A stretch of DNA of 64,000 bases from Candidatus Woesearchaeota archaeon (GCA_018653365.1 JABIAG010000001.1:260772-324771); one strand, 5' to 3'. Shown: positions 2 to 63,353, numbered from the stretch's first letter. Program-made: numbers and translations. The notes: generated from the sequence alone by a model not told the origin.

Positions 2-487
2 AATGAAAAAGAAAAAGCAGTAAAAAAATTAAGTCTAGAAATTGAAAACGTATTGGGAAGTTATGAAGAAGAAACAGCACAAATCTATAAAGGATATAAA
101 GGAATTAAAGTCGCATTTGAAAAAATATTTGAAGAAGTAAAAGGAAAAAGTTATTCCTTCTTTAGTCTAGATGATAACGAATTTGGAGAAGGATCAGTAA
201 GATTTTTTCAACAAATTAGTGTGAAACGAGGAGAAATGGGGGTAACAGCCAAAGGTATAGCAAACTTAAGAACAAAAAAACAATTCCTTAAAATAATGGG
301 ACATATACCAAGTTATGATGTAAGATTTTCTAAATTAAACCTGCCTTCATCAGTAACTTTCACAAAAAAAAGAGTTTTAATTACCCTTTGGGAAGGAAGC
401 CCAATTGGATTTGAAATAGTATCCGAACGAGTAGCAAAAAAATATCAAGAATTATTTGATGAAATTTGGAATCAATCCCCTAAGTAA
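2..487 (+). CDS. TrmB-family transcriptional regulator, C-terminal part (5' end outside window)
   Basis: The reading frame is open back to window base 2. The C-terminal region resembles the C-terminal domain of the TrmB-like protein at 6643..7365 (shared ...G.P.G..I.....Y...FD.IW.Q motif). Confidence 0.5.
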   Translation, partial: NEKEKAVKKLSLEIENVLGSYEEETAQIYKGYKGIKVAFEKIFEEVKGKSYSFFSLDDNEFGEGSVRFFQQISVKRGEMGVTAKGIANLRTKKQFLKIMGHIPSYDVRFSKLNLPSSVTFTKKRVLITLWEGSPIGFEIVSERVAKKYQELFDEIWNQSPK

Positions 488-1203
488 GCTTCTAATACTT
501 TCTTGTTATTTCTTATTTGATCGGGAGTGCCTTCAGCAATAACCTTGCCATTGTCTAAAACGATAACGTGATCAGCAATGTTTAATGTAAAGTTCATATC
601 ATGTTCTATAAGTAAGATTGTGTCCCCTTGTTGTTTTAGTTGTTTGATAACTCTAGAAATGGTGTTTCTTAATTTTGGATTAACGCCTGCAACAGGCTCA
701 TCTAACATTAACAATTTATGAGGATTAAGAATAGATCTTGCTATCTCAATTAAACGCTTCTGACCAAAACTAAGATCCGAAGACTTCTTATTTTTATGTT
801 GAGACATGTTAACAAGTTTTAGAATAGAGTTAATTGTTGATTTGTTATCTGGATTGTTTCTGTTAAGAAAATTCTTCCAAAACTTAGTATCTTCCTGGTT
901 TAGTGCTAATTCCAGGTTTTCTTCAATAGTTAAATTGCTAAATAAACGTGATTGTTGAAATAATCTAGAAATGCCTTTATTAGAAATTTGTTCAACTGAT
1001 AGGTTGGTTAGATTTTCTTTATTGAACTTGATGTTTCCAGAATCAGGTTTGATAATGCCCGAGATAAGATCAAATAATGTAGATTTACCAGATCCATTAG
1101 GACCGATTAGTGCAGTTATTGTGTTGGGCTTAATCTCAAAACTACACCCATCAACGGCTTTGACCCCACCAAAATGTTTTTTTAGATTAGATATTTGTAG
1201 CAT
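472..1203 (-). CDS. ABC transporter ATP-binding protein (branched-chain amino acid LivG/LivF-like)
   Basis: Walker A GPNGSGKST, ABC signature LSFGQKR, Walker B LLMLDEP and H-loop. Confidence 0.9.
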   Translation of the reverse strand: MLQISNLKKHFGGVKAVDGCSFEIKPNTITALIGPNGSGKSTLFDLISGIIKPDSGNIKFNKENLTNLSVEQISNKGISRLFQQSRLFSNLTIEENLELALNQEDTKFWKNFLNRNNPDNKSTINSILKLVNMSQHKNKKSSDLSFGQKRLIEIARSILNPHKLLMLDEPVAGVNPKLRNTISRVIKQLKQQGDTILLIEHDMNFTLNIADHVIVLDNGKVIAEGTPDQIRNNKKVLEAYLGD

Positions 1204-1204
1204 T

Positions 1205-2077
1205 TTAATCTAACTCCACCCTACCAAAGAGCCCTTTGGGGCGGTAGATTAAGATTAGTAAGAGTAATAATGCGTAGATAATTTGTCTCATTGGACCAAC
1301 TATTGAAGAGGGAAAACCAATGAACCTAAGTGGTTCTGGTAAAAGCACCAAAATAAACGTGGCAATAAAAGTACCTTTCAAGGAAGCTAATCCTCCAATA
1401 ATAACAATAGCAACAATCGGAATAATCTGTAAAAGTGTGAATGAAGAAGGATCAATAAACGTAATATAATGAGCGTATAATGATCCGGCTATACCTGCAA
1501 AGAACGCTGAAATACCCATAGCATACATTTTCATCTTAAATGTATTCTTACCCAAAGTCTTACTTGCCAACTCATCATCTCTAATAGATTCTAAAACTTT
1601 ACCAAACGGAGAGTTAACAATTTGTCTAATCACAAAATAAGTTATTGCTGCAATTATGGCAGTAAATATAAGAAATGAGAAATTGTTAGCGATAACAAAA
1701 CCAAAAAAGTTAGGTTTGGTAATACCTGGAATACCTAAAGGACCTCGAGTAAGCGAAACCCAGTTGAGTAATATCGCGTATATAACAAAAGAAAACCCCA
1801 ATGTAGCTAATGCCAGATAATCACCTTTAAGTTTGTTTAAAGGTAATGAAAGTAAAAAACCAAATAACATTGTGACAATACCTGCTGAAAGAAACGCAAT
1901 CAAGAATGGAACTCCATTCATCACCATTAAAGCAGAAGTATAAGCACCAATACCAAAAAAAGCAATATGTCCAATGTTAAGTAAACCCGAATAACCAATT
2001 GTTAACTGTAATGAAATTGCTAAAATAAGGTAAATGCCAACTAATATGGCTAAGTGAATAAAATACGCTTCTATCAT
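1205..2077 (-). CDS. ABC transporter permease (LivM-like)
   Basis: Polytopic membrane protein. Its stop is 2 nt from the ATPase start, as expected for an operon. Confidence 0.8.
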   Translation of the reverse strand: MIEAYFIHLAILVGIYLILAISLQLTIGYSGLLNIGHIAFFGIGAYTSALMVMNGVPFLIAFLSAGIVTMLFGFLLSLPLNKLKGDYLALATLGFSFVIYAILLNWVSLTRGPLGIPGITKPNFFGFVIANNFSFLIFTAIIAAITYFVIRQIVNSPFGKVLESIRDDELASKTLGKNTFKMKMYAMGISAFFAGIAGSLYAHYITFIDPSSFTLLQIIPIVAIVIIGGLASLKGTFIATFILVLLPEPLRFIGFPSSIVGPMRQIIYALLLLLILIYRPKGLFGRVELD

Positions 2078-2117
2078 ATTATATTTGTTACATAATTAGT
2101 TAATAAACCTTTGGAAA

Positions 2118-3176
2118 TTATTCTAAGGTAATTGATTTTCCATCAACCATCTTTTTGGTGATGGCTTCAGTAACAAATGTGCCCTCAGAATCAACATAAA
2201 AAGAACCCATTGCTCCTTTAAATTGATCTAATTCCATTAATTTAGTGGCTGCAATTTCAGAACCAATTAGGTTATCCTTTTCAACAAATATTTGACCTAA
2301 AACTTTTACAATGTCGTAAGCATTACCTGAAAAAACTCTTGGTGCATTTCCGAATTCAGATTCAAATTTGTCTTTAAACTCTTCTGTGGGTTCTGCAGCA
2401 TTAATGAACCAATTATCATTATACAATTCTGGTTCATCAGTATAGTCTGGGCTTTCAATAGTAACAACTGGAATGTCAAGACCAAGTTCAATTCTCTGTT
2501 TCAATATTAATTCAAATTCAGGACTAATTGCACTAAAAAAAACTATTTCAGGATCGGATTCTTTAATTTTGTTCCAAATAGTTTTGAAATCTTTTTCTCC
2601 TTGCGTGAATTTTTCTTCTAAAAGAACTCGAATATTATTCTTTTCCAATTCATTAAATACTTCATTTCTAATTGCTATTCCACCTTCTTGATTCATAGTA
2701 ATTACAGATATTTTAGTAATGTTATCTTCGTTTAATTTTTCAACTAATTTTTTTGCTTGAGATTTAGGGGGAGTCCAATGGTTAAAATTTAAACTTCCTA
2801 ATGTTGCAATATCTGCACTTGCAATTCCTACATGCAAAATATTATTTTCTTGTGCTATTGGTGCAATAACGGTTCCAACAGGAGAACCAAGACTAATAAT
2901 TGCATTAACATCATTAATATTAATTAATTTATTAACATTATTGATCGCTTTTGAAGGTTCAAACATATCATCTTCAAAAATTAATTCAATTTTAATATCT
3001 GAATTCGTATTGAATTCCTCTGCAGCTAAGTTCATAGCTTCTTGACTACTTTCACCAATAAAAGCTAAACTTCCAGTTAAAGGAAGTGTAACACCTAACT
3101 TAATAGTTTCCTGATTATTGCAACCAATTAACGTAATGAGTGTTAGTAATAATAAAATTGTTATTAACTTTTTCAT
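2118..3176 (-). CDS. ABC transporter substrate-binding lipoprotein (Liv/amide family), paralog 1
   Basis: Signal peptide MKKLITILLLLTLITLIGC with a lipobox Cys, and a periplasmic-binding-protein type I fold pattern. Confidence 0.8.
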   Translation of the reverse strand: MKKLITILLLLTLITLIGCNNQETIKLGVTLPLTGSLAFIGESSQEAMNLAAEEFNTNSDIKIELIFEDDMFEPSKAINNVNKLININDVNAIISLGSPVGTVIAPIAQENNILHVGIASADIATLGSLNFNHWTPPKSQAKKLVEKLNEDNITKISVITMNQEGGIAIRNEVFNELEKNNIRVLLEEKFTQGEKDFKTIWNKIKESDPEIVFFSAISPEFELILKQRIELGLDIPVVTIESPDYTDEPELYNDNWFINAAEPTEEFKDKFESEFGNAPRVFSGNAYDIVKVLGQIFVEKDNLIGSEIAATKLMELDQFKGAMGSFYVDSEGTFVTEAITKKMVDGKSITLE

Positions 3177-3370
3177 TGTATCACCTTTTTATTTAATTAG
3201 TTGGATACTTTTAAACCTTTTGATTTTATTTTTCTTTTTAATACCTAAAATTTTTGTGGGTTTTAAAATAAGTATGATTAAGAATAAAATAAAAAAGTTA
3301 GAACAAAATAATAATATTTTGATACACAATACATATTTCCTGGCCAAAGAGTATTGTTTTGGGAATAGAT

Positions 3371-4456
3371 TTATTCTATAGGAACAAATTCTCCATCTTT
3401 AACAACATAAATGGAATAACTCTTACCCACCGTATCTCCATTCTCATCAAAATTAGTAATGCCAGACGCACCTCTCCAATCTTTCAGATCATATAGCCAG
3501 CCTTTAGCTTGTTCAACGTCACCCTCATTTTCAAGTAAAGCTTCTAAACTTAAAACAACACAATCATAAAGACCTGAAGCAAAATATCCTGGTTCAACTC
3601 CAAATTTCGCATCATGTGCTTCAAGGAATTCAGTTAATTCTGGAGATTCAGGATCTACATAATAAGGAAAACTAATGCCCTCTGCTAGTTCTAAGCTTTC
3701 ATCATCAGAAATAGAAATAAGAGTCTCAGAAGCAACTAAAGGCAAGTCCAATCCTAGTTCTTTAATTTCTTTTAAAATTGTCGGATAATGATGTGCAATA
3801 ATCAGTAACACTTCAGGATCAGCACGTTTAATCTTATTAAGTTCTGTTTTGAAATTTGTTGATTTAACTTCAAAACTTTCAGCAATAACAACTTCACCAC
3901 CATTTTCAACAATTCTATCCTTGACAACCTCACTAATTCCAGTACCATAATCATTTAAGATATTCAAAATTGCGATTTTTTCATAACCCTGTTCAGAGAT
4001 GAAATCTGCAAGATCATTACCCTGATACAAATCAGAAGGATAAACTCTAAAAATATAATCTCCTGCATAAGTAATATCTGGATGACTGCCTCCCCCAATT
4101 AAAAGAACCTTATTTTCTTCAATAATTGGAGCCATGGCAAGAATTTCACCAGAACTTCCTGGAATAATAGCTTTAACTCTATCTACATTTATTAATTTTT
4201 GAGCAGCAATGACTGCTTCAGCAGATTCTAGTTGAGAATCCTCAAGAATAAGTTCGACCTCAACGTTGTATTTATCTTCAATCTTTTCAACTCCTAGTGC
4301 AAGTGCTTTTTCCCAGGCTACACCATAATCTGAAGCCGGACCGGTTAAAGGAAGAATGGCTCCAAGTTTAATTGTTTCCTTTTCTTCAACTTCATTAGAA
4401 CAACCTATAAGAGTAATTAATGTAAGTAATAATAAAATAGTTATTAGTTTTTTCAT
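3371..4456 (-). CDS. ABC transporter substrate-binding lipoprotein, paralog 2
   Basis: N-terminal 19 aa identical to paralog 1, then a divergent mature domain of the same PBP type I class. Confidence 0.8.
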   Translation of the reverse strand: MKKLITILLLLTLITLIGCSNEVEEKETIKLGAILPLTGPASDYGVAWEKALALGVEKIEDKYNVEVELILEDSQLESAEAVIAAQKLINVDRVKAIIPGSSGEILAMAPIIEENKVLLIGGGSHPDITYAGDYIFRVYPSDLYQGNDLADFISEQGYEKIAILNILNDYGTGISEVVKDRIVENGGEVVIAESFEVKSTNFKTELNKIKRADPEVLLIIAHHYPTILKEIKELGLDLPLVASETLISISDDESLELAEGISFPYYVDPESPELTEFLEAHDAKFGVEPGYFASGLYDCVVLSLEALLENEGDVEQAKGWLYDLKDWRGASGITNFDENGDTVGKSYSIYVVKDGEFVPIE

Positions 4457-4505
4457 GGTATCACCTTTATGTTCTACTATTAAAGCATTATTAAATCTTG
4501 TGATA

Positions 4506-5378
4506 TTAATCTTTCTTTTTAATCCCTAAAATGCCTGTAGGCTTGAAGATAAGGAAAATGAATAAGATAATAAAAGCAATAGCATCCTTGTAACCTGAGG
4601 GAAGCCACCAAATACCATAATTCTCAGCAAAGCCAAGTAAGAAAGAACCAAGAACTGCCCCCGGTACAGAACCAATACCCCCAATGATTGCACCAGTAAA
4701 ACCTTTAATGATGAGATTAGTACCCATTGTTGGCTCTAAATTTTGTTCTAATCCAATGAGTATTCCTGCAACACCAGCAATGGCAGAACCTAAAGTCATG
4801 GCCCACATATAAATACGTTCAGAAGATATGCCCACAATGGCAGCTACATCTTTATTATCAGAAACTGCCCTCATAGCTTTACCAATTCGAGTTTTCTTCA
4901 TAAAAAAGTATACGCCGATAAGTAAAATTGCTGCTACAACAACTATAACAATTTGCAAAGGAGTTATGATCGCTCCAGCAAACTCTAACCCTTTAGCAAC
5001 CTTAAGATAACCAATAGTCTTAACATCCGCCCCAAAAGAGAGAAGAATTATAGACTCTAATAAAATAAGAAGTGCAAAACTAGCAATAAGCAAGATTACA
5101 TTAGATGCTTTCTTTATTCTAAGTTGTTTGTAAATATGGTGCATTCCATAACCTAGTAATGAGGCACATAAAACTGCTAAAATTACTGAGAAACCAAAAT
5201 TAATACTTAATAATGAAAAGAATAAGTAAAGAAAATATGCAGAGAACGCAACAGTAACACCATGTGCAAAGTGAATTACTTTAGATGTAGAATAAATTAA
5301 AGAAAAACCCGCAGCAACCAATGCATAAATAGCTCCAGCAATTAATCCATTAACAAATAGTTGTGCAACAATACCCAT
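4506..5378 (-). CDS. ABC transporter permease (LivH-like)
   Basis: Hydrophobic polytopic protein with a Gly-rich LivH-like C-terminus (GFTGAIIGGIGSVPGAVLG). Confidence 0.8.
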   Translation of the reverse strand: MGIVAQLFVNGLIAGAIYALVAAGFSLIYSTSKVIHFAHGVTVAFSAYFLYLFFSLLSINFGFSVILAVLCASLLGYGMHHIYKQLRIKKASNVILLIASFALLILLESIILLSFGADVKTIGYLKVAKGLEFAGAIITPLQIVIVVVAAILLIGVYFFMKKTRIGKAMRAVSDNKDVAAIVGISSERIYMWAMTLGSAIAGVAGILIGLEQNLEPTMGTNLIIKGFTGAIIGGIGSVPGAVLGSFLLGFAENYGIWWLPSGYKDAIAFIILFIFLIFKPTGILGIKKKD

Positions 5379-5442
5379 GATGTAAAATAAAAACTTGGGT
5401 TAATAAATTTTACTTAAAAAAAAGAATAAAAAAATAAAAAAG

Positions 5443-6528
5443 TTAGGAAAGATCTGTGATCTTTCCATTAACAATTTTTTTCACTGCAAACGTTTTGGTG
5501 AAAGCACCAGTTCCATCAGATACTAAGTGTCCAGAAACACCATCATAAACCTTGATGTTGTTTAAGTACTCACTTAAAACAGTTGTATCTTCTGAATTAG
5601 TAGCTTCCATTGCCTCAGCAATCATCATAACTGCATCGTAAGCAGATGAAGCACCAATATCAATTGGAATGTTATACTTGGTTTCGTAAGCAGTCTTGAA
5701 TTCTTCAGTTGGTGTTAATGAAGTTAAAAATTCCATTTCTTCATAAGCACCTTCTGCAGCATCAATAACGTCCTGATCCATTGTAATACAATAAACTGGA
5801 AGCGCAACACCAAGTTCTCTAACTTTTTTAACAACTAAAGTTCCAATCATTATCCCATCCGTTGTTGATACAATTGCATCAATGTTAGCATTCTTAATTT
5901 TCAATGCTTCACTATTGACGTTCTTATTTGTAGTAACGGGTTCAACTAAAACTTCAATAGTTCCTCCCAACTCCTCAAATCTTGCTTTAAACGCGTTAGT
6001 TTGTTCTTTAACCCAAACTTCTTCAGCTCCAATTAAAGCAATTCTTCTATGGCCTTTACTATACACTCGGTCTGCTAATTCTGCAGAAAGGATGTAATCG
6101 TGTGGCCAAGTATTGAACAAATAATCACTTTCTTCATTAAACTCTGCTTTTCCTAATGAAGGAGAGACCATTAAAACCTCTTTCTCATGTGCCAAATTTT
6201 TTAATGGAAGTCCTGTATGAGACCAGGTAGTTCCAATAACAATATCTATATCTTTAACTTCAGTAAGTTGTTGAAACGCACTTAAAGCATGTTTAGCATC
6301 ACTTTGATCATCTTGATGGTCAACAACAAGTGTTTTACCATTTATTCCACCATTGTTATTGATTTTTTCAAGGGCCATATCAATGCCGTTCATTGAGGCA
6401 GTACCCCATGCAGCGCCAGATCCGGAAAGAATCAATATGCTACCAATTTTGATTTCTTCTTTGCTATTGGAACAACCACTAAATATGATTAAGGTTAGTA
6501 CCAAAAGCAAAAACATTTTTTTTATCAT
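5443..6528 (-). CDS. ABC transporter substrate-binding lipoprotein, paralog 3
   Basis: Start moved to the internal Met (MIKKMFLLLVLTLIIFSGC) at 6528, which is preceded by a GAGGTGA SD-like motif. The upstream extension in the ORF track has no signal peptide. Confidence 0.75.
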   Translation of the reverse strand: MIKKMFLLLVLTLIIFSGCSNSKEEIKIGSILILSGSGAAWGTASMNGIDMALEKINNNGGINGKTLVVDHQDDQSDAKHALSAFQQLTEVKDIDIVIGTTWSHTGLPLKNLAHEKEVLMVSPSLGKAEFNEESDYLFNTWPHDYILSAELADRVYSKGHRRIALIGAEEVWVKEQTNAFKARFEELGGTIEVLVEPVTTNKNVNSEALKIKNANIDAIVSTTDGIMIGTLVVKKVRELGVALPVYCITMDQDVIDAAEGAYEEMEFLTSLTPTEEFKTAYETKYNIPIDIGASSAYDAVMMIAEAMEATNSEDTTVLSEYLNNIKVYDGVSGHLVSDGTGAFTKTFAVKKIVNGKITDLS

Positions 6529-6642
6529 ATTATCACCTCTTTTGTTACTACCTAGTGAGCCGAGGAAGATATATAAGAACTCCCTCTCCATAAATGGAGG
6601 AGAAAGAAAAGATTTAAATAGGGGGTTGGTTGATTAATTAGT

Positions 6643-10327: not shown

Positions 10328-10570
10328 TTATTCCTCGGAATCTTCTTTTACGCTCTCTTTTATTTTAGTTTTGCCTATATCATAAGCTTTACCAGTAAAT
10401 TTTGAATTACATTTAGTACATTCCCAAATTCCCGAAGCTATTCTTCTAACCTTTAGAGCATGACAATAAGGACATTTTTTATCTTTATTTTTAATGTCAA
10501 GAAATTTTGAGAGTTTACCTCTAACTTTTCTACCGTATCTTACTCCGTAACTTAGTTTTGTTGTCATCAT
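10328..10570 (-). CDS. rpl37ae: 50S ribosomal protein L37Ae
   Basis: YGVRYGRKVR...CPYC...C.KC zinc-ribbon ribosomal protein. Confidence 0.9.
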   Translation of the reverse strand: MMTTKLSYGVRYGRKVRGKLSKFLDIKNKDKKCPYCHALKVRRIASGIWECTKCNSKFTGKAYDIGKTKIKESVKEDSEE

Positions 10571-10641
10571 TACACCTTTTGTTTCATTCTGGACTTGCCT
10601 TTTGCAAGTGTCATTGTTTTTTTACCTGTTATTATTTTAAA

Positions 10642-10746
10642 TGGGGCTGCCCAGACATTCGACAACCCCTATTTTTTGAGTTGTATTCGAACTGGGGTCC
10701 TCTGGTCCCAAACCAGAGAGGATGGACCAAGCTACCCTACAGCCCC
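10642..10746 (-). tRNA. tRNA-Pro (anticodon UGG) with ~30-nt non-canonical intron in T-loop
   Basis: Acceptor GGGGCTG/CAGCCCC. Anticodon stem TCTGG/CCAGA with loop TTTGGGA. T-stem CCCAG/CTGGG is interrupted after TTCGAA by a 30-nt insert carrying a TCGA/TCGA 4-bp helix flanked by 3-nt bulges (BHB-like). No CCA is encoded. Confidence 0.8.
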
Positions 10747-10868
10747 TTTATGTCTATTAAGTAAAGGGAAAAATAATGCGTTTATAAATGTTACTGTAAT
10801 ATAAAAAGAAATAACCGCTGCACGCTTTTTGAGGGGGGTGTATCCAGAAGGATAGTGTGCAACGGTTG

Positions 10869-27525: not shown

Positions 27526-28860
27526 TTATTCTTTAGTTTGTGTTGATTCATTCATAGCAAAATTTGTTGAAAAAAGAATTGCTTGATCTTCAGTAGGGAA
27601 CATTTGAGAACCACTTGTGTATTTTTCATCAAGGATTTCTATGGCTCTTCTATAAAAACCTTTTATGGTATCTGCATTTTCAGCAAGAATCCAGGTGTTA
27701 TTTACTGGATTGATAACTCCTTCTTGTTTCTTTTTCCAAATTTTCCAACGTGAAGGTTTCCTACTTTGAGGTTGCCATTCAGTACTAAGGGCATTAGCTA
27801 ATTTGCTTTTTGCTGCTTGCATGGCTTTAGCACTAGCAAGAACTGGATCGTTAGCTTCTGTTTCTGATATGTAAGCAGTTAGGTCTCCATCATAACCTTG
27901 ATCAAGTCTATCTTTTGCTCTTTGAGCAACTCCCTCTCTTGCACGTCTATGGGAATTTACTCCTCTATCAGAAAGACCTGTAAAACCAAAATAGTTGTCT
28001 GCAGGTTTTTCTTCAATCGCAAGTTCGTAATCAGTTAAAGTTTGAAGATTATTAACGAAAGCATCACCTGTGTTGTTTGCTAAAGCATCAAGTGCAGGTT
28101 CAGCACTCATATCATGATCTTGAAGTGCAGTAACTATGTTATCTCTTAACCCTTGGATTGCGGTTTGAAGTCGTCTAGCTCCCCCCTCTCCTAAACTTCC
28201 AATATGAAGTTCATTTAAAGGACAAATATAACGATCATCTTCTTTTCTCCAGGTAGTATAATCTGTTGGAATAATTGGTTGAGGAACTTTTGCATCAGGA
28301 TCAATACTTACTGCGGGCATAAATCTTTCTATTAGTGTTGGATCTTGTTGAGTGTATCTTCCAAGCTCATCAAGTAAGTGAGCAGCTTGAGGAAAAGCAG
28401 CATTAGGTGAAGATGTAACGTTTTCTAACCAATCATGTAAGTCAGAAAGATGCCAGGGCTGACGAGCTTGCATTCTTGCATTACCACAAAGAGTTGCATA
28501 ATCTTGAGCTCTTCGTTCAGCACCAGTTCTAGAAAAACCACCAAATTGAGCTTCATCATCATCATCACAAAAAGGATCATTAAACATACCATTATCATAA
28601 GTAGTCCAGTTAGCAACATCAGAAGCATTTACAAGGCCAGTAATTGCATCTTCAATCAAATCAGCTCTTGCAATACGATCTGTTGCTTCATATTCTTGTC
28701 TAACAATTGCTTCTTTAGAATCTTGTCCATGAAAAATTTCTTTTATTAAATCAACGGTGTGAGGAATTGCTGTTGTTAGACCCATACCTATTGCAAGTGC
28801 AACGGCTCTTTTACGAACTCTTGGGTTTTCTGTTGGAGATCCTCTTGGTTCTGGTGTCAT
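27526..28860 (-). CDS. hypothetical protein (Lys-poor, Ala/Asp/Gln-rich)
   Basis: 444-aa ORF with no motif I recognise. Co-directional with, and 43 nt downstream of, the radical SAM gene. Confidence 0.5.
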   Translation of the reverse strand: MTPEPRGSPTENPRVRKRAVALAIGMGLTTAIPHTVDLIKEIFHGQDSKEAIVRQEYEATDRIARADLIEDAITGLVNASDVANWTTYDNGMFNDPFCDDDDEAQFGGFSRTGAERRAQDYATLCGNARMQARQPWHLSDLHDWLENVTSSPNAAFPQAAHLLDELGRYTQQDPTLIERFMPAVSIDPDAKVPQPIIPTDYTTWRKEDDRYICPLNELHIGSLGEGGARRLQTAIQGLRDNIVTALQDHDMSAEPALDALANNTGDAFVNNLQTLTDYELAIEEKPADNYFGFTGLSDRGVNSHRRAREGVAQRAKDRLDQGYDGDLTAYISETEANDPVLASAKAMQAAKSKLANALSTEWQPQSRKPSRWKIWKKKQEGVINPVNNTWILAENADTIKGFYRRAIEILDEKYTSGSQMFPTEDQAILFSTNFAMNESTQTKE

Positions 28861-35181: not shown

Positions 35182-36534
35182 TTGTCTAATCTTAAAAAGA
35201 TTCTGGCATTTACCAAAGATTTAAAAAAGAGGTTAAATTGCTTTAATTCTTATATGGCAAGTGGATTAATTCTAGCACCTGGTTTAGACGAGTTTATGGC
35301 AGAATTTACTGTAAAAGAGATCAAGGCAGATCATGTAGCTTTCATGGCAACAGAAGCCACAGTAGAATTAATTCATCATGTTGTGGAAAAATTAGAGATA
35401 AAATCATATAAAACATTCTTTGTAAAAAACATAATCAGTACATCTGAAGCAATAGAAGAATTCATCAACGCATTTCAATGGCTAAAAGAAAAAGAGTGTA
35501 CTAAAATAACAGTAGACGCAACAAATTGTATAACTGTAATGGAAATGGCAACCTATGTTGCAGCAAGTTTAATGGACCTGTTTGAAAAAGGAGAAACTGA
35601 ACACGAAGTGAACTTAGTGTATGTACATTCAGATTTTGAAATTAAAAAAGATGGAGTTGCGGGAGAGGTAAGGGGAACAGAACGATTAATTGAACTAGAA
35701 AAGCCATTAGATAGTTTAGGAATTATCTTGGCACACGACGCAATACATGCATTTAATAGTAACCGATACGTACAAGCTGCAGAAAACTTTAAAGTATTGG
35801 GAGAGAATTCCACTTCTGATAAATCATTATTTTACCGAGGGTTGAAACACCTGTCTCAGGCATACAATTTTTGGGATAAAATGAACTTTAATGATGCACT
35901 ACTTGCTTTGAAAAAAGCAGAAGATGAACTTAATAGAGTGTGGTACACAAGAAACAAAAGTGCTTTTTCCCATGTGAAAGAAAACATTAAGGTTCTAGAA
36001 GAACTAAAAAACCATAATGAACTTGCAGTAATAATTGACCTGTACATGAACGCAGTAAGACGACAAAAATCAGAAAGGTATGATGACGCTCTCGCAAGAC
36101 TTTATGCGTGTGTTGAAAGAATTTCACAACACCAATTAAAAGAACATGGAATTGTTACAAAAAATCCAGATTATTCTAACTTACCTAAAGAGGTTAAGGA
36201 TAGATTTGAAAAAGAGATCGGACTACCTAAAGAATTAGAACTGAAAAAAGGACTGTATCTATTATCTTTGCTAAATGATCCAATAGGAAAAGAAGTACTA
36301 GGTCTGCGTTACAAGTCAATAGTCGGAATTATTGGATTACGTAATACCTCAATACTAGCACATGGAATAAAACCCATCGGTGAGAAAAACTTTCTTGATT
36401 TCAAAGAAAAATTATCAGATAAACTATACAATGCATTCTTATTACATTATAAAATGGGAGCAGGATTTATTGATGGCCATAAACACATAAAACTCTCAAA
36501 TGTACGTGATTTGATGTATAAAGAAAGATTTTAA
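35182..36534 (+). CDS. CARF-HEPN protein, Csx1/Csm6-like (orphan, no cas context in window)
   Basis: N-terminal Rossmann-like CARF pattern (LILAPGLDEF ... KITVDATNCITVMEMA). Central YMNAVRRQKSERYDDALARLYACVE helix is typical of Csx1/Csm6 HEPN. C-terminal RNTSILAHG contains the R-x4-6-H motif. Confidence 0.5.
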   Translation: MSNLKKILAFTKDLKKRLNCFNSYMASGLILAPGLDEFMAEFTVKEIKADHVAFMATEATVELIHHVVEKLEIKSYKTFFVKNIISTSEAIEEFINAFQWLKEKECTKITVDATNCITVMEMATYVAASLMDLFEKGETEHEVNLVYVHSDFEIKKDGVAGEVRGTERLIELEKPLDSLGIILAHDAIHAFNSNRYVQAAENFKVLGENSTSDKSLFYRGLKHLSQAYNFWDKMNFNDALLALKKAEDELNRVWYTRNKSAFSHVKENIKVLEELKNHNELAVIIDLYMNAVRRQKSERYDDALARLYACVERISQHQLKEHGIVTKNPDYSNLPKEVKDRFEKEIGLPKELELKKGLYLLSLLNDPIGKEVLGLRYKSIVGIIGLRNTSILAHGIKPIGEKNFLDFKEKLSDKLYNAFLLHYKMGAGFIDGHKHIKLSNVRDLMYKERF

Positions 36535-38171: not shown

Positions 38172-38284
38172 TGGTAGCCCCACCCAGATTCGAACTGGGG
38201 TCCCCGGACATTTTCATCTAAAACATCCAGATCGGCTTTTCAGATACCAAAATCCGAAATGATTGACCACTACACCATGGGGCT
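38172..38284 (-). tRNA. tRNA-Gln (anticodon UUG) with 37-nt canonical-position intron and genomically encoded CCA
   Basis: Acceptor AGCCCCA/TGGGGCT. Anticodon stem TCGGA/TCCGG with loop TTTTGG(G) interrupted after position 37. Intron forms an hBH-like structure (TTTT/AAAA and ATCT/AGAT helices). T-arm CCCAGTTCGAATCTGGG. ACCA at the 3' end. Confidence 0.75.
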
Positions 38285-38369
38285 ATAGTTCAAAAAAACC
38301 TGGGTTAATTAATAAATGTTTTTCTTTATTGTTGGAAAGATTTATTAAATAGTTGACGTTAAATAAGGT

Positions 38370-44526: not shown

Positions 44527-45177
44527 ATGAAAGCAGTGTTAATGTTATATCCAATAAGACAAATTGTAGAAAGAGATCCAGAATTTCCAAGCTTAAGATG
44601 CGAACTGGTGGATGGCTTGAAACGTTACTGGACTCAAAGTTTAAATGGGGTTGTAACTCCTGAAGAATTTGATCAAGATTTTGGGTTAATTAATCGAAGA
44701 TTAGCTAACTACAGAAAACAAGGATTTAATGTGGGATGGATATTTTTCGGTCAAGAAGGTAATCTTGGCAAGCCCGATACATCAACACAAGCTTCACTAT
44801 TTGACATCAGAACAGAAGATGTAAAGCTTTCTGCAGGTTTTACTTATGCAAATTATCGAACAGGAGTGTTCTATTGCGATGCAGAATCAGTACTATCAAC
44901 TTTGCCAAGTTTGGATGATGTTGTAATTGGGGGATTTCATAATAGTGATTGTGTTCCAAAACTTGCAGGTTTATTGAAACAAGCAGGAGTTAAAGCACAA
45001 ACCGATCCAAGATTAACCGATGAAATATTTCTTTATTCTCACAGAATTTTAGAACAAAGACTCGCAAGATATCAAATAGACCATGGTTTTTTAGATTCAG
45101 AAATGAACGAAGATAATCCAGAAGAAATGCGAACTCTTTTTGAAAGAGAAGCCGTAGAAGAAAAACTTTTAATCTAA
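44527..45177 (+). CDS. hypothetical protein (Lys-poor)
   Basis: 216-aa ORF with atypical composition. Confidence 0.4.
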   Translation: MKAVLMLYPIRQIVERDPEFPSLRCELVDGLKRYWTQSLNGVVTPEEFDQDFGLINRRLANYRKQGFNVGWIFFGQEGNLGKPDTSTQASLFDIRTEDVKLSAGFTYANYRTGVFYCDAESVLSTLPSLDDVVIGGFHNSDCVPKLAGLLKQAGVKAQTDPRLTDEIFLYSHRILEQRLARYQIDHGFLDSEMNEDNPEEMRTLFEREAVEEKLLI

Positions 45178-45839
45178 TCTTTTTTATTTACTTTTTCATT
45201 AATACGATCTTTTAAAGCAACACTACCTTTCTTAACTTTTCTTAAAAGTTTATCAACCTGTTTCTTAGCCATACCAGACCATTGATAGAATGCTTCATCA
45301 AAGTCTTCAACTCTGCCACCATACTGTTCAAAGTAACACATTGATTCAAGAGACTCTAACAATTTAGTATCATGAACCTCATCAGAAAAGCCAATAGGAA
45401 TAATCGCTTGAGGTCGAGTATGATCTGGAATTTTAAGAAGACGCTTAATCATCCCCTCTTCAAAAGCACTAACAAAAGTTGCAGACAGACCTAAATCTGT
45501 AGCTCGTAATAATAAGTTTTCAACAGCTAATGCACAATTTTGAACTGAATATAACATTTCTCCCCTAACTCCATAATGACGTTTAACATCTTCCATAAGA
45601 GCAACAACAACAATAATTAACGGAGCAGAAGAGATCCAATTCTGTTGAAAACAAGCATCAGCAACCTGGTTTTTACTATCTTGATTCTTAACTAAAATAA
45701 ACTTCCAGGACTGTAAATTACCTGAAGATGGTGCTTTTCGAGCAGCATCCAATAAATCCATAACCTCATCCGCAGAAATTTCTTTGTCTTTGAATTTTCG
45801 CACACTTCTTCTTTTGTTAATTGCATCCTCAACATTCAT
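45174..45839 (-). CDS. nitroreductase-family protein
   Basis: KRRSVRKF...APSSGNLQSWKFILV motif. Confidence 0.75.
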   Translation of the reverse strand: MNVEDAINKRRSVRKFKDKEISADEVMDLLDAARKAPSSGNLQSWKFILVKNQDSKNQVADACFQQNWISSAPLIIVVVALMEDVKRHYGVRGEMLYSVQNCALAVENLLLRATDLGLSATFVSAFEEGMIKRLLKIPDHTRPQAIIPIGFSDEVHDTKLLESLESMCYFEQYGGRVEDFDEAFYQWSGMAKKQVDKLLRKVKKGSVALKDRINEKVNKKD

Positions 45840-45875
45840 ACTTATTTTTAGTAGAAGGAGTTAATAAATGTTACG

Positions 45876-62591: not shown

Positions 62592-63353
62592 ATGACTTGG
62601 TTGGCGGAAGCTGAAAGAGATGAACTTGGACTTGAACAAGAATTAACGCAAGAAGAACTTAGTTTACATCATATCCCTCCTGAGCAAAGACCTTCAGAAC
62701 TAGTTTTTTTATTAGAGGATTTTCTTAAACATTTTCAATTAGGTGATGAAGTTCCTGTGAGTTCGGATCTTGGAAATGTTGTAACCGTTGCTTATGAAGG
62801 GGGAATGAAACATTGTTTCTTACATTATGATGCTGAAGATCCAAGACGCGTTTTGACTTATAATGCCCAGGGCGAGAGAGACGCGCGTGTAATCCCTGCG
62901 TTTATTTGTTGTCAGGATTTAATGATGGATGACGAATTATTAGCAAGATATGGGGTGGTGGTAACACGAAAAGATGCACAAGGATTTAATCCCCATTTTT
63001 ATGAACATGCACTTATTTTAAGTAAATGTGGTGAGGGCAATTTAAGAACTAGTATTTCTTTTGAGGGTTTAAGTCATCCAACTGGAACAAGCATGGCAAT
63101 GGATGAATTAACCCTAGCAACGCAAGTAACTGAACGATTAGGTCAAGCATACGGGGTTGATGCAAAACATTTTATTGCATTTGAGGTAATGCGGGATCAA
63201 TATTATCTAGGAGAACAATTACGTCGGACGATTGCAATTTCAGAGGCATTTGATCATTATTTACTCACGTATGCAAATGGTGCAAGATGTCTAATTCAAA
63301 AATACAAACCCGAAATAATGCAAGAAGTTGAAGAACACTCAAAAGTTGCATGA
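62592..63353 (+). CDS. hypothetical protein (Lys-poor)
   Basis: 253-aa ORF with atypical composition. Confidence 0.4.
   Translation: MTWLAEAERDELGLEQELTQEELSLHHIPPEQRPSELVFLLEDFLKHFQLGDEVPVSSDLGNVVTVAYEGGMKHCFLHYDAEDPRRVLTYNAQGERDARVIPAFICCQDLMMDDELLARYGVVVTRKDAQGFNPHFYEHALILSKCGEGNLRTSISFEGLSHPTGTSMAMDELTLATQVTERLGQAYGVDAKHFIAFEVMRDQYYLGEQLRRTIAISEAFDHYLLTYANGARCLIQKYKPEIMQEVEEHSKVA

Follow-up and report, generated by a model that had tools for sequence, protein, structure and literature searches.

The pathway of archaeal tRNA splicing has been reviewed (PMC4090602, PMC4033280), and the boundary between positions 59 and 60, within the T-loop, is listed among the recurrent non-canonical intron sites (PMC4090602). 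The closest described examples come from ARMAN-2, a member of DPANN. Its pre-tRNA-Cys(GCA) contains a 59/60 intron of 13 nt, which the ARMAN-2 endonuclease cleaved in vitro, and its pre-tRNA-Pro(GGG) has introns with strict bulge-helix-bulge (BHB) motifs at both 53/54 and 59/60 (PMC3239211). Non-canonical BHB introns of Crenarchaeota/Thermoproteales and of Nanoarchaeota were described by Marck & Grosjean (2003) and Sugahara et al. (2008), as relayed in PMC4090602 and PMC4033280; a text search of the literature joining Thermoproteales, tRNA introns, and position 59/60 matched no paper. The tRNA predictions of Kaneta et al. (2018) include one Woesearchaeota and one Pacearchaeota genome, with incomplete tRNA sets and with tRNA disruption raised in several DPANN lineages having an alpha4 EndA with the L3 loop; for Woesearchaeota, intron positions are not itemized in the main text (PMC5829648). 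Finally, tRNAscan-SE 2.0 models such introns, its BHB training set being crenarchaeal/euryarchaeal and thaumarchaeal (PMC8450103). The intron type, the 59/60 site, and its occurrence in DPANN are already documented.

Here, we describe a gene from a 64-kb stretch of Candidatus Woesearchaeota DNA (the whole stretch analyzed is called the window below) that very probably encodes a functional tRNA-Pro(UGG) interrupted by a 30-nt BHB intron at 59/60. It resembles the ARMAN-2 genes in the DPANN host and the position of the intron in the T-loop, and shares the strict hBHBh' structure with ARMAN-2 tRNA-Pro(GGG). At the same time, the host belongs to another phylum-level lineage, Woesearchaeota rather than Micrarchaeota, the isoacceptors are different, and a single T-loop intron is present, whereas ARMAN-2 tRNA-Pro(GGG) has two. 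The ARMAN-2 enzyme is of the unusual epsilon2 type.

As far as the cited reviews cover them, the introns of Crenarchaeota/Thermoproteales and Nanoarchaeota share with the present one a portable splice motif, the use of 59/60 among their sites, and the property of being missed by ordinary finders, but often there are several introns per gene, and many of the motifs are relaxed and need (alpha-beta)2 enzymes of broad specificity. The window gene, in contrast, has a single intron and a strict motif, which should be a substrate for every type of archaeal EndA, and resides in a mesophile-type genome with 32% GC. Compared with the canonical 37/38 archaeal intron, the hBHBh' geometry is identical and the enzymes are presumed identical; the difference is that the central helix is contributed by T-loop positions 54–57 instead of the anticodon loop, so that the T-loop would be blocked until splicing. 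The observation made in the initial annotation of this DNA is confirmed and its interpretation is supported, with corrections to the register of the motif and to the claim of rarity.

Read on the minus strand (10746..10642), the gene has the sequence GGGGCTG TA GGGT AGCTTGGTCCA TCCT C TCTGG TTTGGGA CCAGA GGAC CCCAG TTCGAA, then 30 nt, then T CTGGG CAGCCCC A. Its RNA form is GGGGCUG UA GGGU AGCUUGGUCCA UCCU C UCUGG UUUGGGA CCAGA GGAC CCCAG UUCGAA UACAACUCAAAAAAUAGGGGUUGUCGAAUG U CUGGG CAGCCCC A. The hallmarks of archaeal tRNA-Pro(UGG) are all there, namely, a 7-bp acceptor stem, U8, A14, G18G19, A21, U33, the anticodon UGG, G37, a 4-nt variable region with C48 as its last base, a 5-bp T-stem, and the discriminator A, while CCA is not encoded. 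The minus-strand tRNA-Pro(UGG) with intact stems is thus as initially described. The strands of the T-stem are separated by 37 nt, compared with the expected 7. The parts of the gene are as follows.

10642..10746, minus strand: whole tRNA-Pro(UGG) gene, 105-nt pre-tRNA body with the discriminator A at 10642 (sequence and ARAGORN on the spliced form)
10686..10746, minus strand: 5' exon, tRNA positions 1–59 (sequence, ARAGORN on the spliced form, and a partial Rfam tRNA match)
10746-10740, minus strand: 5' strand of the acceptor stem, within the 5' exon
10710-10708, minus strand: anticodon UGG, within the 5' exon
10696-10692, minus strand: 5' strand of the T-stem, within the 5' exon
10691-10686, minus strand: T-loop nucleotides 54–59, within the 5' exon
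10656..10685, minus strand: 30-nt intron UACAACUCAAAAAAUAGGGGUUGUCGAAUG, whose removal rebuilds the 7-nt T-loop TTCGAAT
10642..10655, minus strand: 3' exon, starting with U60 (sequence and ARAGORN on the spliced form)
10654-10650, minus strand: 3' strand of the T-stem, within the 3' exon
10649-10643, minus strand: 3' strand of the acceptor stem, within the 3' exon

With default settings, ARAGORN reports no tRNA in the whole 64-kb window, and its intron mode yields nothing at the tRNA-Pro locus; Rfam at the gathering threshold finds no tRNA anywhere in the window either. The prediction that standard scanners would miss this gene is hence borne out. At a permissive E-value, the Rfam tRNA model matches only the 5' 60 nt (10687-10746), with a score of 14.9 bits against a gathering threshold of 29. 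The unspliced 105-mer receives no ARAGORN call. When nucleotides 62–91 of the pre-tRNA (window positions 10685..10656) are deleted in silico, the resulting 75-mer is recognized by ARAGORN as tRNA-Pro(tgg) with a full cloverleaf, the sequence around the A59-U60 junction being TTCGAATCTGGG. This 75-mer is identical at 73 of 75 positions to the uninterrupted tRNA-Pro gene of another locus (L017), which scores 57.3 bits with Rfam. Two plus-strand ORFs overlapping the gene, 10558-10764 and 10595-10804, were rejected as coding, since they are antisense to a conserved tRNA.

The precursor motif reads 5'-CCCAG (UUCG) AA/U ACAACUC-AAAAAAUAG-GGGUUGU (CGAA) UG/U CUGGG-3', where parentheses enclose the central helix and slashes mark the predicted cuts. 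It is a strict 3-4-3 motif of the hBHBh' type, in which the 5-bp T-stem CCCAG/CTGGG serves as the outer helix h and the bulges lie on opposite strands. Its elements are listed below.

10688..10691, minus strand: 5' strand of the central BHB helix, UUCG, tRNA positions 54–57; pairs with CGAA, and the pair of position 57 with its partner covaries in homologues
10658..10661, minus strand: 3' strand of the central BHB helix, CGAA, intron nucleotides -6 to -3 (fold and comparison of homologues)
10685..10687, minus strand: 5' bulge AA/U, i.e., A58, A59, and the first intron base; predicted cut 10686/10685 (3-4-3 geometry)
10655..10657, minus strand: 3' bulge UG/U, i.e., the last two intron bases and U60; predicted cut 10656/10655 (T60 is constant in homologues)
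10662..10684, minus strand: inner intron hairpin h' (minimum-energy fold with an explicit pair list; stem kept in the sister species L173)
10684-10678, 10677-10669, and 10668-10662, minus strand: parts of h', respectively ACAACUC, a 9-nt loop, and GGGUUGU, forming 7 bp, one of them G:U

Cuts placed behind the second base of either bulge take out exactly 30 nt and allow TTCGAA to be joined to T, forming a 7-nt T-loop. Thus, a BHB motif with two 3-nt bulges and a 4-bp helix is indeed present, as had been proposed, but the initial drawing (helix TCGA/TCGA, bulges ATA and ATG) is shifted by one base: the actual helix is UUCG/CGAA, with bulges AAU and UGU. The TCGA/TCGA drawing uses one base twice, both in this arrangement and in the ACAAC/GTTGT stem, and the usual cuts would then leave a T-loop of 9 nt.

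The folding free energy of the 105-mer (RNAfold) is -44.9 kcal/mol, with z = -2.9 relative to shuffles; the acceptor stem, the T-stem, the two 3-nt bulges, and the intron stem are all present in the minimum-energy fold. In this fold the central helix has 5 bp (3-5-3) and is slipped by 1 nt from the strict 3-4-3 arrangement. The two registers are isoenergetic (-26.6 kcal/mol for strict 3-4-3 and -26.8 for the 5-bp helix, the latter being ahead by 0.2), and TCGA/TCGA is worse by 1.5 kcal/mol, only the differences among these three structures being meaningful. A genuine BHB intron cut in another register, at 60/61 or within a 3-5-3 motif, could therefore be considered. The slightly better energy of the 5-bp helix speaks for it, as does the fact that both the intron and exon 2 start with U, so that in the window gene alone 59/60 and 60/61 are indistinguishable and yield the same product. 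As described below, the relatives of the gene discriminate between these registers.

A different possibility is a pseudogene, in which a random insertion of 30 nt or the scar of a mobile element in the T-loop would have inactivated tRNA-Pro. The 3' halves of tRNA genes are common integration sites, and the standard detectors make no call here. Against it, excision leaves every stem and conserved base intact, and the insert constitutes an exact 3-4-3 BHB, the removal of which rebuilds a T-loop of seven bases. Further evidence bearing on this possibility comes from the comparative analysis.

Relatives of the gene were collected by two scans. The metagenome scan required 10–40 unspecified bases between TTCRAA and the 3' exon, leaving the intron sequence unconstrained, and produced 85 contigs with 13–36 nt inserted at the 59/60 site. 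The genome scan used a tRNA-Pro(UGG) pattern blind to the presence of an intron, with one genome per species, and hence gives examples rather than frequencies; it returned at least 120 matches, mostly uninterrupted euryarchaeal genes. Among the genome matches listed, T-loop introns at the 59/60 site were observed at three loci: L035 from a Nanoarchaeota MAG (19 nt), L093 from a Woesearchaeota MAG (16 nt), and L074. The orthologous tRNA-Pro gene is uninterrupted in three Nanoarchaeia/Woesearchaeota MAGs (L106, L109, L115). With three uninterrupted and two interrupted genes among the five DPANN-labeled genomes in the matches listed, gain or loss of the intron has occurred inside this group. The initial suggestion that an intron of this kind would be out of the ordinary in a DPANN-like genome has to be withdrawn, as 59/60 introns are shared by the 85 metagenome contigs, by Nanoarchaeota and Woesearchaeota MAGs, and by ARMAN-2 (PMC3239211).

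The third locus, L074 (CAYLII010000076.1, nt 43-240, 47% GC), is labeled 'uncultured Methanosarcinales archaeon' and contains a tRNA-Pro(UGG) gene with a 59/60 intron of 123 nt, far longer than the 13–36 nt seen elsewhere. The 3' strand of its central helix is TGAA, the 3' bulge is AG/T, and the L37Ae gene follows. Either this contig has been mislabeled through a binning error, or the intron reaches beyond DPANN.

The introns of the relatives are largely unrelated in sequence, while the T-stem is intact in 91 of 91 genes parsed, with 5/5 positions paired in all 77 distinct junctions. In 78 of the 91 genes, all four pairs of the central helix are formed; the most frequent types are TTCA/TGAA (52 genes), TTCG/CGAA (18), and TTCG/TGAA (7). 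The third base of the 3' bulge is T60 in all 91 genes, and in the 5' bulge of the homologues A58 and A59 are fixed, with A, T, C, or G as the third base. Because the first intron base varies in the relatives and the first base of the 3' exon is always T, the junction is assigned to 59/60.

The relatives were chosen by exon patterns close to the window gene and were parsed in a preset 59/60 register, so that the junction-only alignment leans towards the structure; the controls with shifted registers argue against an artifact. After dereplication, a perfect 4-bp helix is formed by 66 of 77 junctions in the BHB register, compared with 0–4 of 77 when the register is shifted by 1–4 nt. Since the perfect helix is largely confined to one register, the motif is more than a chance occurrence. 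In the junction-only alignment 97.2% of cells are paired (at most 71% in the slid controls), and none of 500 shuffles matched the observed percentage of pairing or the covariation score. Among 44 junction types, position 57 and its partner form A:U in 21, G:C in 9, and G:U in 5, and the T-stem pair 52:62 in the junction alignment is G:C in 38 and A:U in 6. When spliced in silico at 59/60, 72 of 80 distinct genes are identified by ARAGORN as tRNA-Pro(tgg); unspliced, 74 of the 80 are missed.

These data bear on both possibilities introduced above. The other-register reading now appears very unlikely, since 59/60 is the only junction that yields TTCRAAT in all relatives (the first intron base being A, C, G, or T next to a constant T60), and conservation is limited to the register in which a 4-bp helix adjoins a 3-nt 3' bulge. 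As to inactivation by a random insertion, BHB-forming inserts of unrelated sequence, situated at the same site in 85 contigs and showing covariation, would not be expected.

The inner helix is less uniform than the central one. Only 35% of the relatives' junctions have an inner helix of at least 3 bp abutting the 5' bulge, compared with 6% in shuffles. Hence, the 5' side of the motif is relaxed in many relatives, and the strict motif of the window gene is not general.

When the window and related loci (572 kb) were searched for 59/60 BHB introns in tRNAs of all kinds, only tRNA-Pro(UGG) was recovered. As these sequences contain almost no other tRNA genes, this result says nothing about specificity for tRNA-Pro. 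Indeed, in the window together with L035, L074, L093, and L125-L209 (572 kb), ARAGORN and a T-arm/acceptor scan revealed, besides tRNA-Pro, only an uninterrupted tRNA-Val(GAC) in L168 and the tRNA-Gln of the window. This scarcity of tRNAs may mean little, as the loci represent the same syntenic region, or it could reflect further disrupted tRNA genes that escaped detection.

The genomic context of the gene is conserved. In the window, the gene for ribosomal protein L37Ae starts 71 nt downstream of tRNA-Pro(UGG); an identical L37Ae protein is encoded in the NCBI assembly GCA_018675265.1 (contig JABGYM010000008.1), and both this protein and the EF-2 of the window carry the NCBI label 'Candidatus Woesearchaeota archaeon'. 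An identical contig also occurs in the sequencing run SRR3725354. At 84 loci, with or without the intron, tblastn placed L37Ae directly downstream of tRNA-Pro; Pcc1 and prefoldin beta often come next, in the order seen in the window. This shared position directly upstream of L37Ae indicates that the tRNA-Pro gene is orthologous across the loci. The intron-bearing loci range from 28 to 57% GC, a spread indicating that they represent many lineages, and L37Ae is only about 50% identical across the radiation.

A closer comparison is provided by a sister species, L173, in which L37Ae, a neighboring 136-aa protein, and XPD are respectively 82, 87.5, and 73% identical to those of the window. The tRNA exons differ by one D-loop base; the intron (31 nt) occupies the same site, with changes confined to the hairpin loop and the stem conserved. 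Upstream of tRNA-Pro, a 19-nt block, CAGTAACATTTATAAACGC, is perfectly conserved in L173, whereas the surrounding spacer has diverged. The retention of this putative promoter block and of the intron stem, along with the conserved synteny, also speaks against decay, and a pseudogene is, in our opinion, highly improbable. We thus continue to regard the locus as a functional, intron-containing tRNA-Pro(UGG) gene.

The upstream region contains the following candidate promoter element, whose motif recurs in the window.

10781..10792, minus strand: putative BRE/TATA promoter AACATTTATAAA, 35–46 nt upstream of the tRNA-Pro 5' end
10781-10792, 38309-38320, and 45861-45872, minus strand: copies of AACATTTATWAA (motif count in the window)

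The motif AACATTTATWAA occurs three times in the window, compared with 0.24 copies expected. Each of the two tRNA genes is preceded by one copy, at a distance of about 25–46 nt, and the remaining copy (45861-45872) lies just upstream of a nitroreductase-family gene (45839..45174). The copy at tRNA-Pro forms part of the 19-nt block retained in L173. The motif probably is the local BRE/TATA promoter consensus. Within the spacer between tRNA-Pro and L37Ae, a perfect 6-bp hairpin ACTTGC-AAAAG-GCAAGT (10593-10609, minus strand) is situated inside a 14-codon mini-ORF; this segment is absent from the aligned L173 spacer.

It could also be supposed that the 30 nt are retained, the product being either a tRNA whose T-arm is expanded or a tRNA-like RNA that serves some other role. 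The sole point in favor of this reading, an indirect one, is the stable fold of the RNA before splicing. The contacts between the T-loop and the D-loop, needed for the L-shape of tRNA, could not form with bases 54–57 sequestered, and an insert that varies between 13 and 123 nt and is conserved only in the splice motif has the pattern of an excised spacer. We consider the probability of retention to be almost negligible. Two other classes of interruption were rejected. A group I or group II intron has a core of at least 200 nt, whereas the insert has 30 nt and matches no Rfam family at E <= 10; a split or permuted tRNA is inconsistent with exons that are contiguous and colinear within 105 nt.

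The way in which the excised intron would be processed can be suggested by analogy with established archaeal tRNA splicing, from which the enzymes, the chemistry of the cuts, and the occurrence of splicing in this organism are inferred. In the precursor, the 4-bp central helix would be formed by U54-G57 and by the CGAA located close to the intron's 3' end; it would be flanked by the T-stem on one side and by the 7-bp intron hairpin on the other, yielding the strict hBHBh' motif. The splicing endonuclease EndA would then cut behind the second base of each bulge, and the RNA ligase RtcB would join A59 to U60, producing the T-loop UUCGAAU and a 75-nt tRNA; RtcB probably would also circularize the intron. 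The CCA-adding enzyme would complete the 3' end afterwards. As bases 54–57 are locked in the central helix, formation of the T-loop and any modification dependent on it would have to follow splicing.

Neither EndA nor RtcB was found by Pfam scans among approximately 60 ORFs of the 64-kb window, and tblastn with an approximate Methanocaldococcus EndA query, a result of little weight, produced no match in the DNA of the related loci. Every known type of EndA accepts strict motifs (PMC3239211, PMC5829648). Hence, the strict motif of the window's tRNA-Pro(UGG) needs no special enzyme, while the relaxed motifs of the relatives suggest an enzyme of broad specificity in the clade.

A scan of the window for GC-rich islands revealed one other RNA-like island outside coding regions, which corresponds to a second hidden tRNA gene.

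38284..38172, minus strand: tRNA-Gln(UUG) with A1:U72 and encoded CCA (GC-rich island scan and ARAGORN on the spliced form)
38210-38246, minus strand: its 37-nt intron at the canonical 37/38 site (BHB motif)

The motif of this intron has the central helix UUUU/GAAA and the bulges GG/U and AU/G. In the scans of the 64-kb window, the gene was missed by ARAGORN with default settings and by Rfam; upon splicing, it is identified by ARAGORN as tRNA-Gln(ttg). The call of tRNA-Phe(aaa) made by the intron mode of ARAGORN at 38284..38172 is a miscall, given the identity of the spliced form. Thus, both tRNA genes of the window, Pro and Gln, are invisible to default tools, and the canonical intron of tRNA-Gln(UUG) implies that the genome depends on BHB splicing anyway.

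The remainder of the window (31–36% GC) contains archaeal core genes identified by Pfam: L37Ae, Pcc1, prefoldin beta, S15, L7Ae, aEF-2, aEF-1alpha, FtsZ, ATP-dependent DNA ligase, and XPD. On the minus strand, positions 472-6591 hold a branched-chain amino-acid-type ABC transporter cluster composed of three paralogous periplasmic-binding-protein genes, two permeases, and an ATPase; elsewhere, there are genes for G6PD, class II FBP aldolase, and a PfkB-family kinase. The metabolism encoded in the window exceeds what is expected for the most reduced DPANN genomes. A 450-aa protein encoded at 35182-36534 (plus strand) contains Csm6 HEPN and Csm6 6H domains (Pfam E = 3.6e-27 and 3.1e-10, respectively), and no cas genes were found among the scanned neighboring ORFs. 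Two sub-threshold Rfam matches, a SAM-III (SMK box) riboswitch at 62739-62814 (plus strand; 28.2 bits, gathering 45, E = 0.02) and the C/D-box snoRNA snR41 at 28206-28310 (minus strand; 31.4 bits, gathering 50, E = 0.19), fall within long ORFs and probably are due to chance.

No description of a recurring 59/60 intron in the L37Ae-adjacent tRNA-Pro(UGG) gene was found in the searchable literature. Its recurrence there in many uncultured lineages is a modest descriptive addition. One may speculate, with considerable doubt, that the intron is old and positionally fixed in this gene across a wide Woesearchaeota-type DPANN radiation, the alternative being neutral gain and loss. If the intron were indeed old and fixed, the interruption itself would be maintained by selection, possibly because the 3' half is thereby barred as an integrase attachment site, or because T-loop modification and quality control are gated on splicing.

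For the biology of the group, the gene provides a well-supported case of a T-loop intron in Woesearchaeota, with comparative evidence and involving no new mechanism. Its main value is for annotation. To users of ARAGORN or Rfam, the genome seems to be devoid of tRNA-Pro(UGG), and the 64-kb window, as scanned, of tRNA-Gln(UUG). As tools blind to such introns miss genes of this kind, apparent gaps in the tRNA sets of DPANN genomes can be artifacts.
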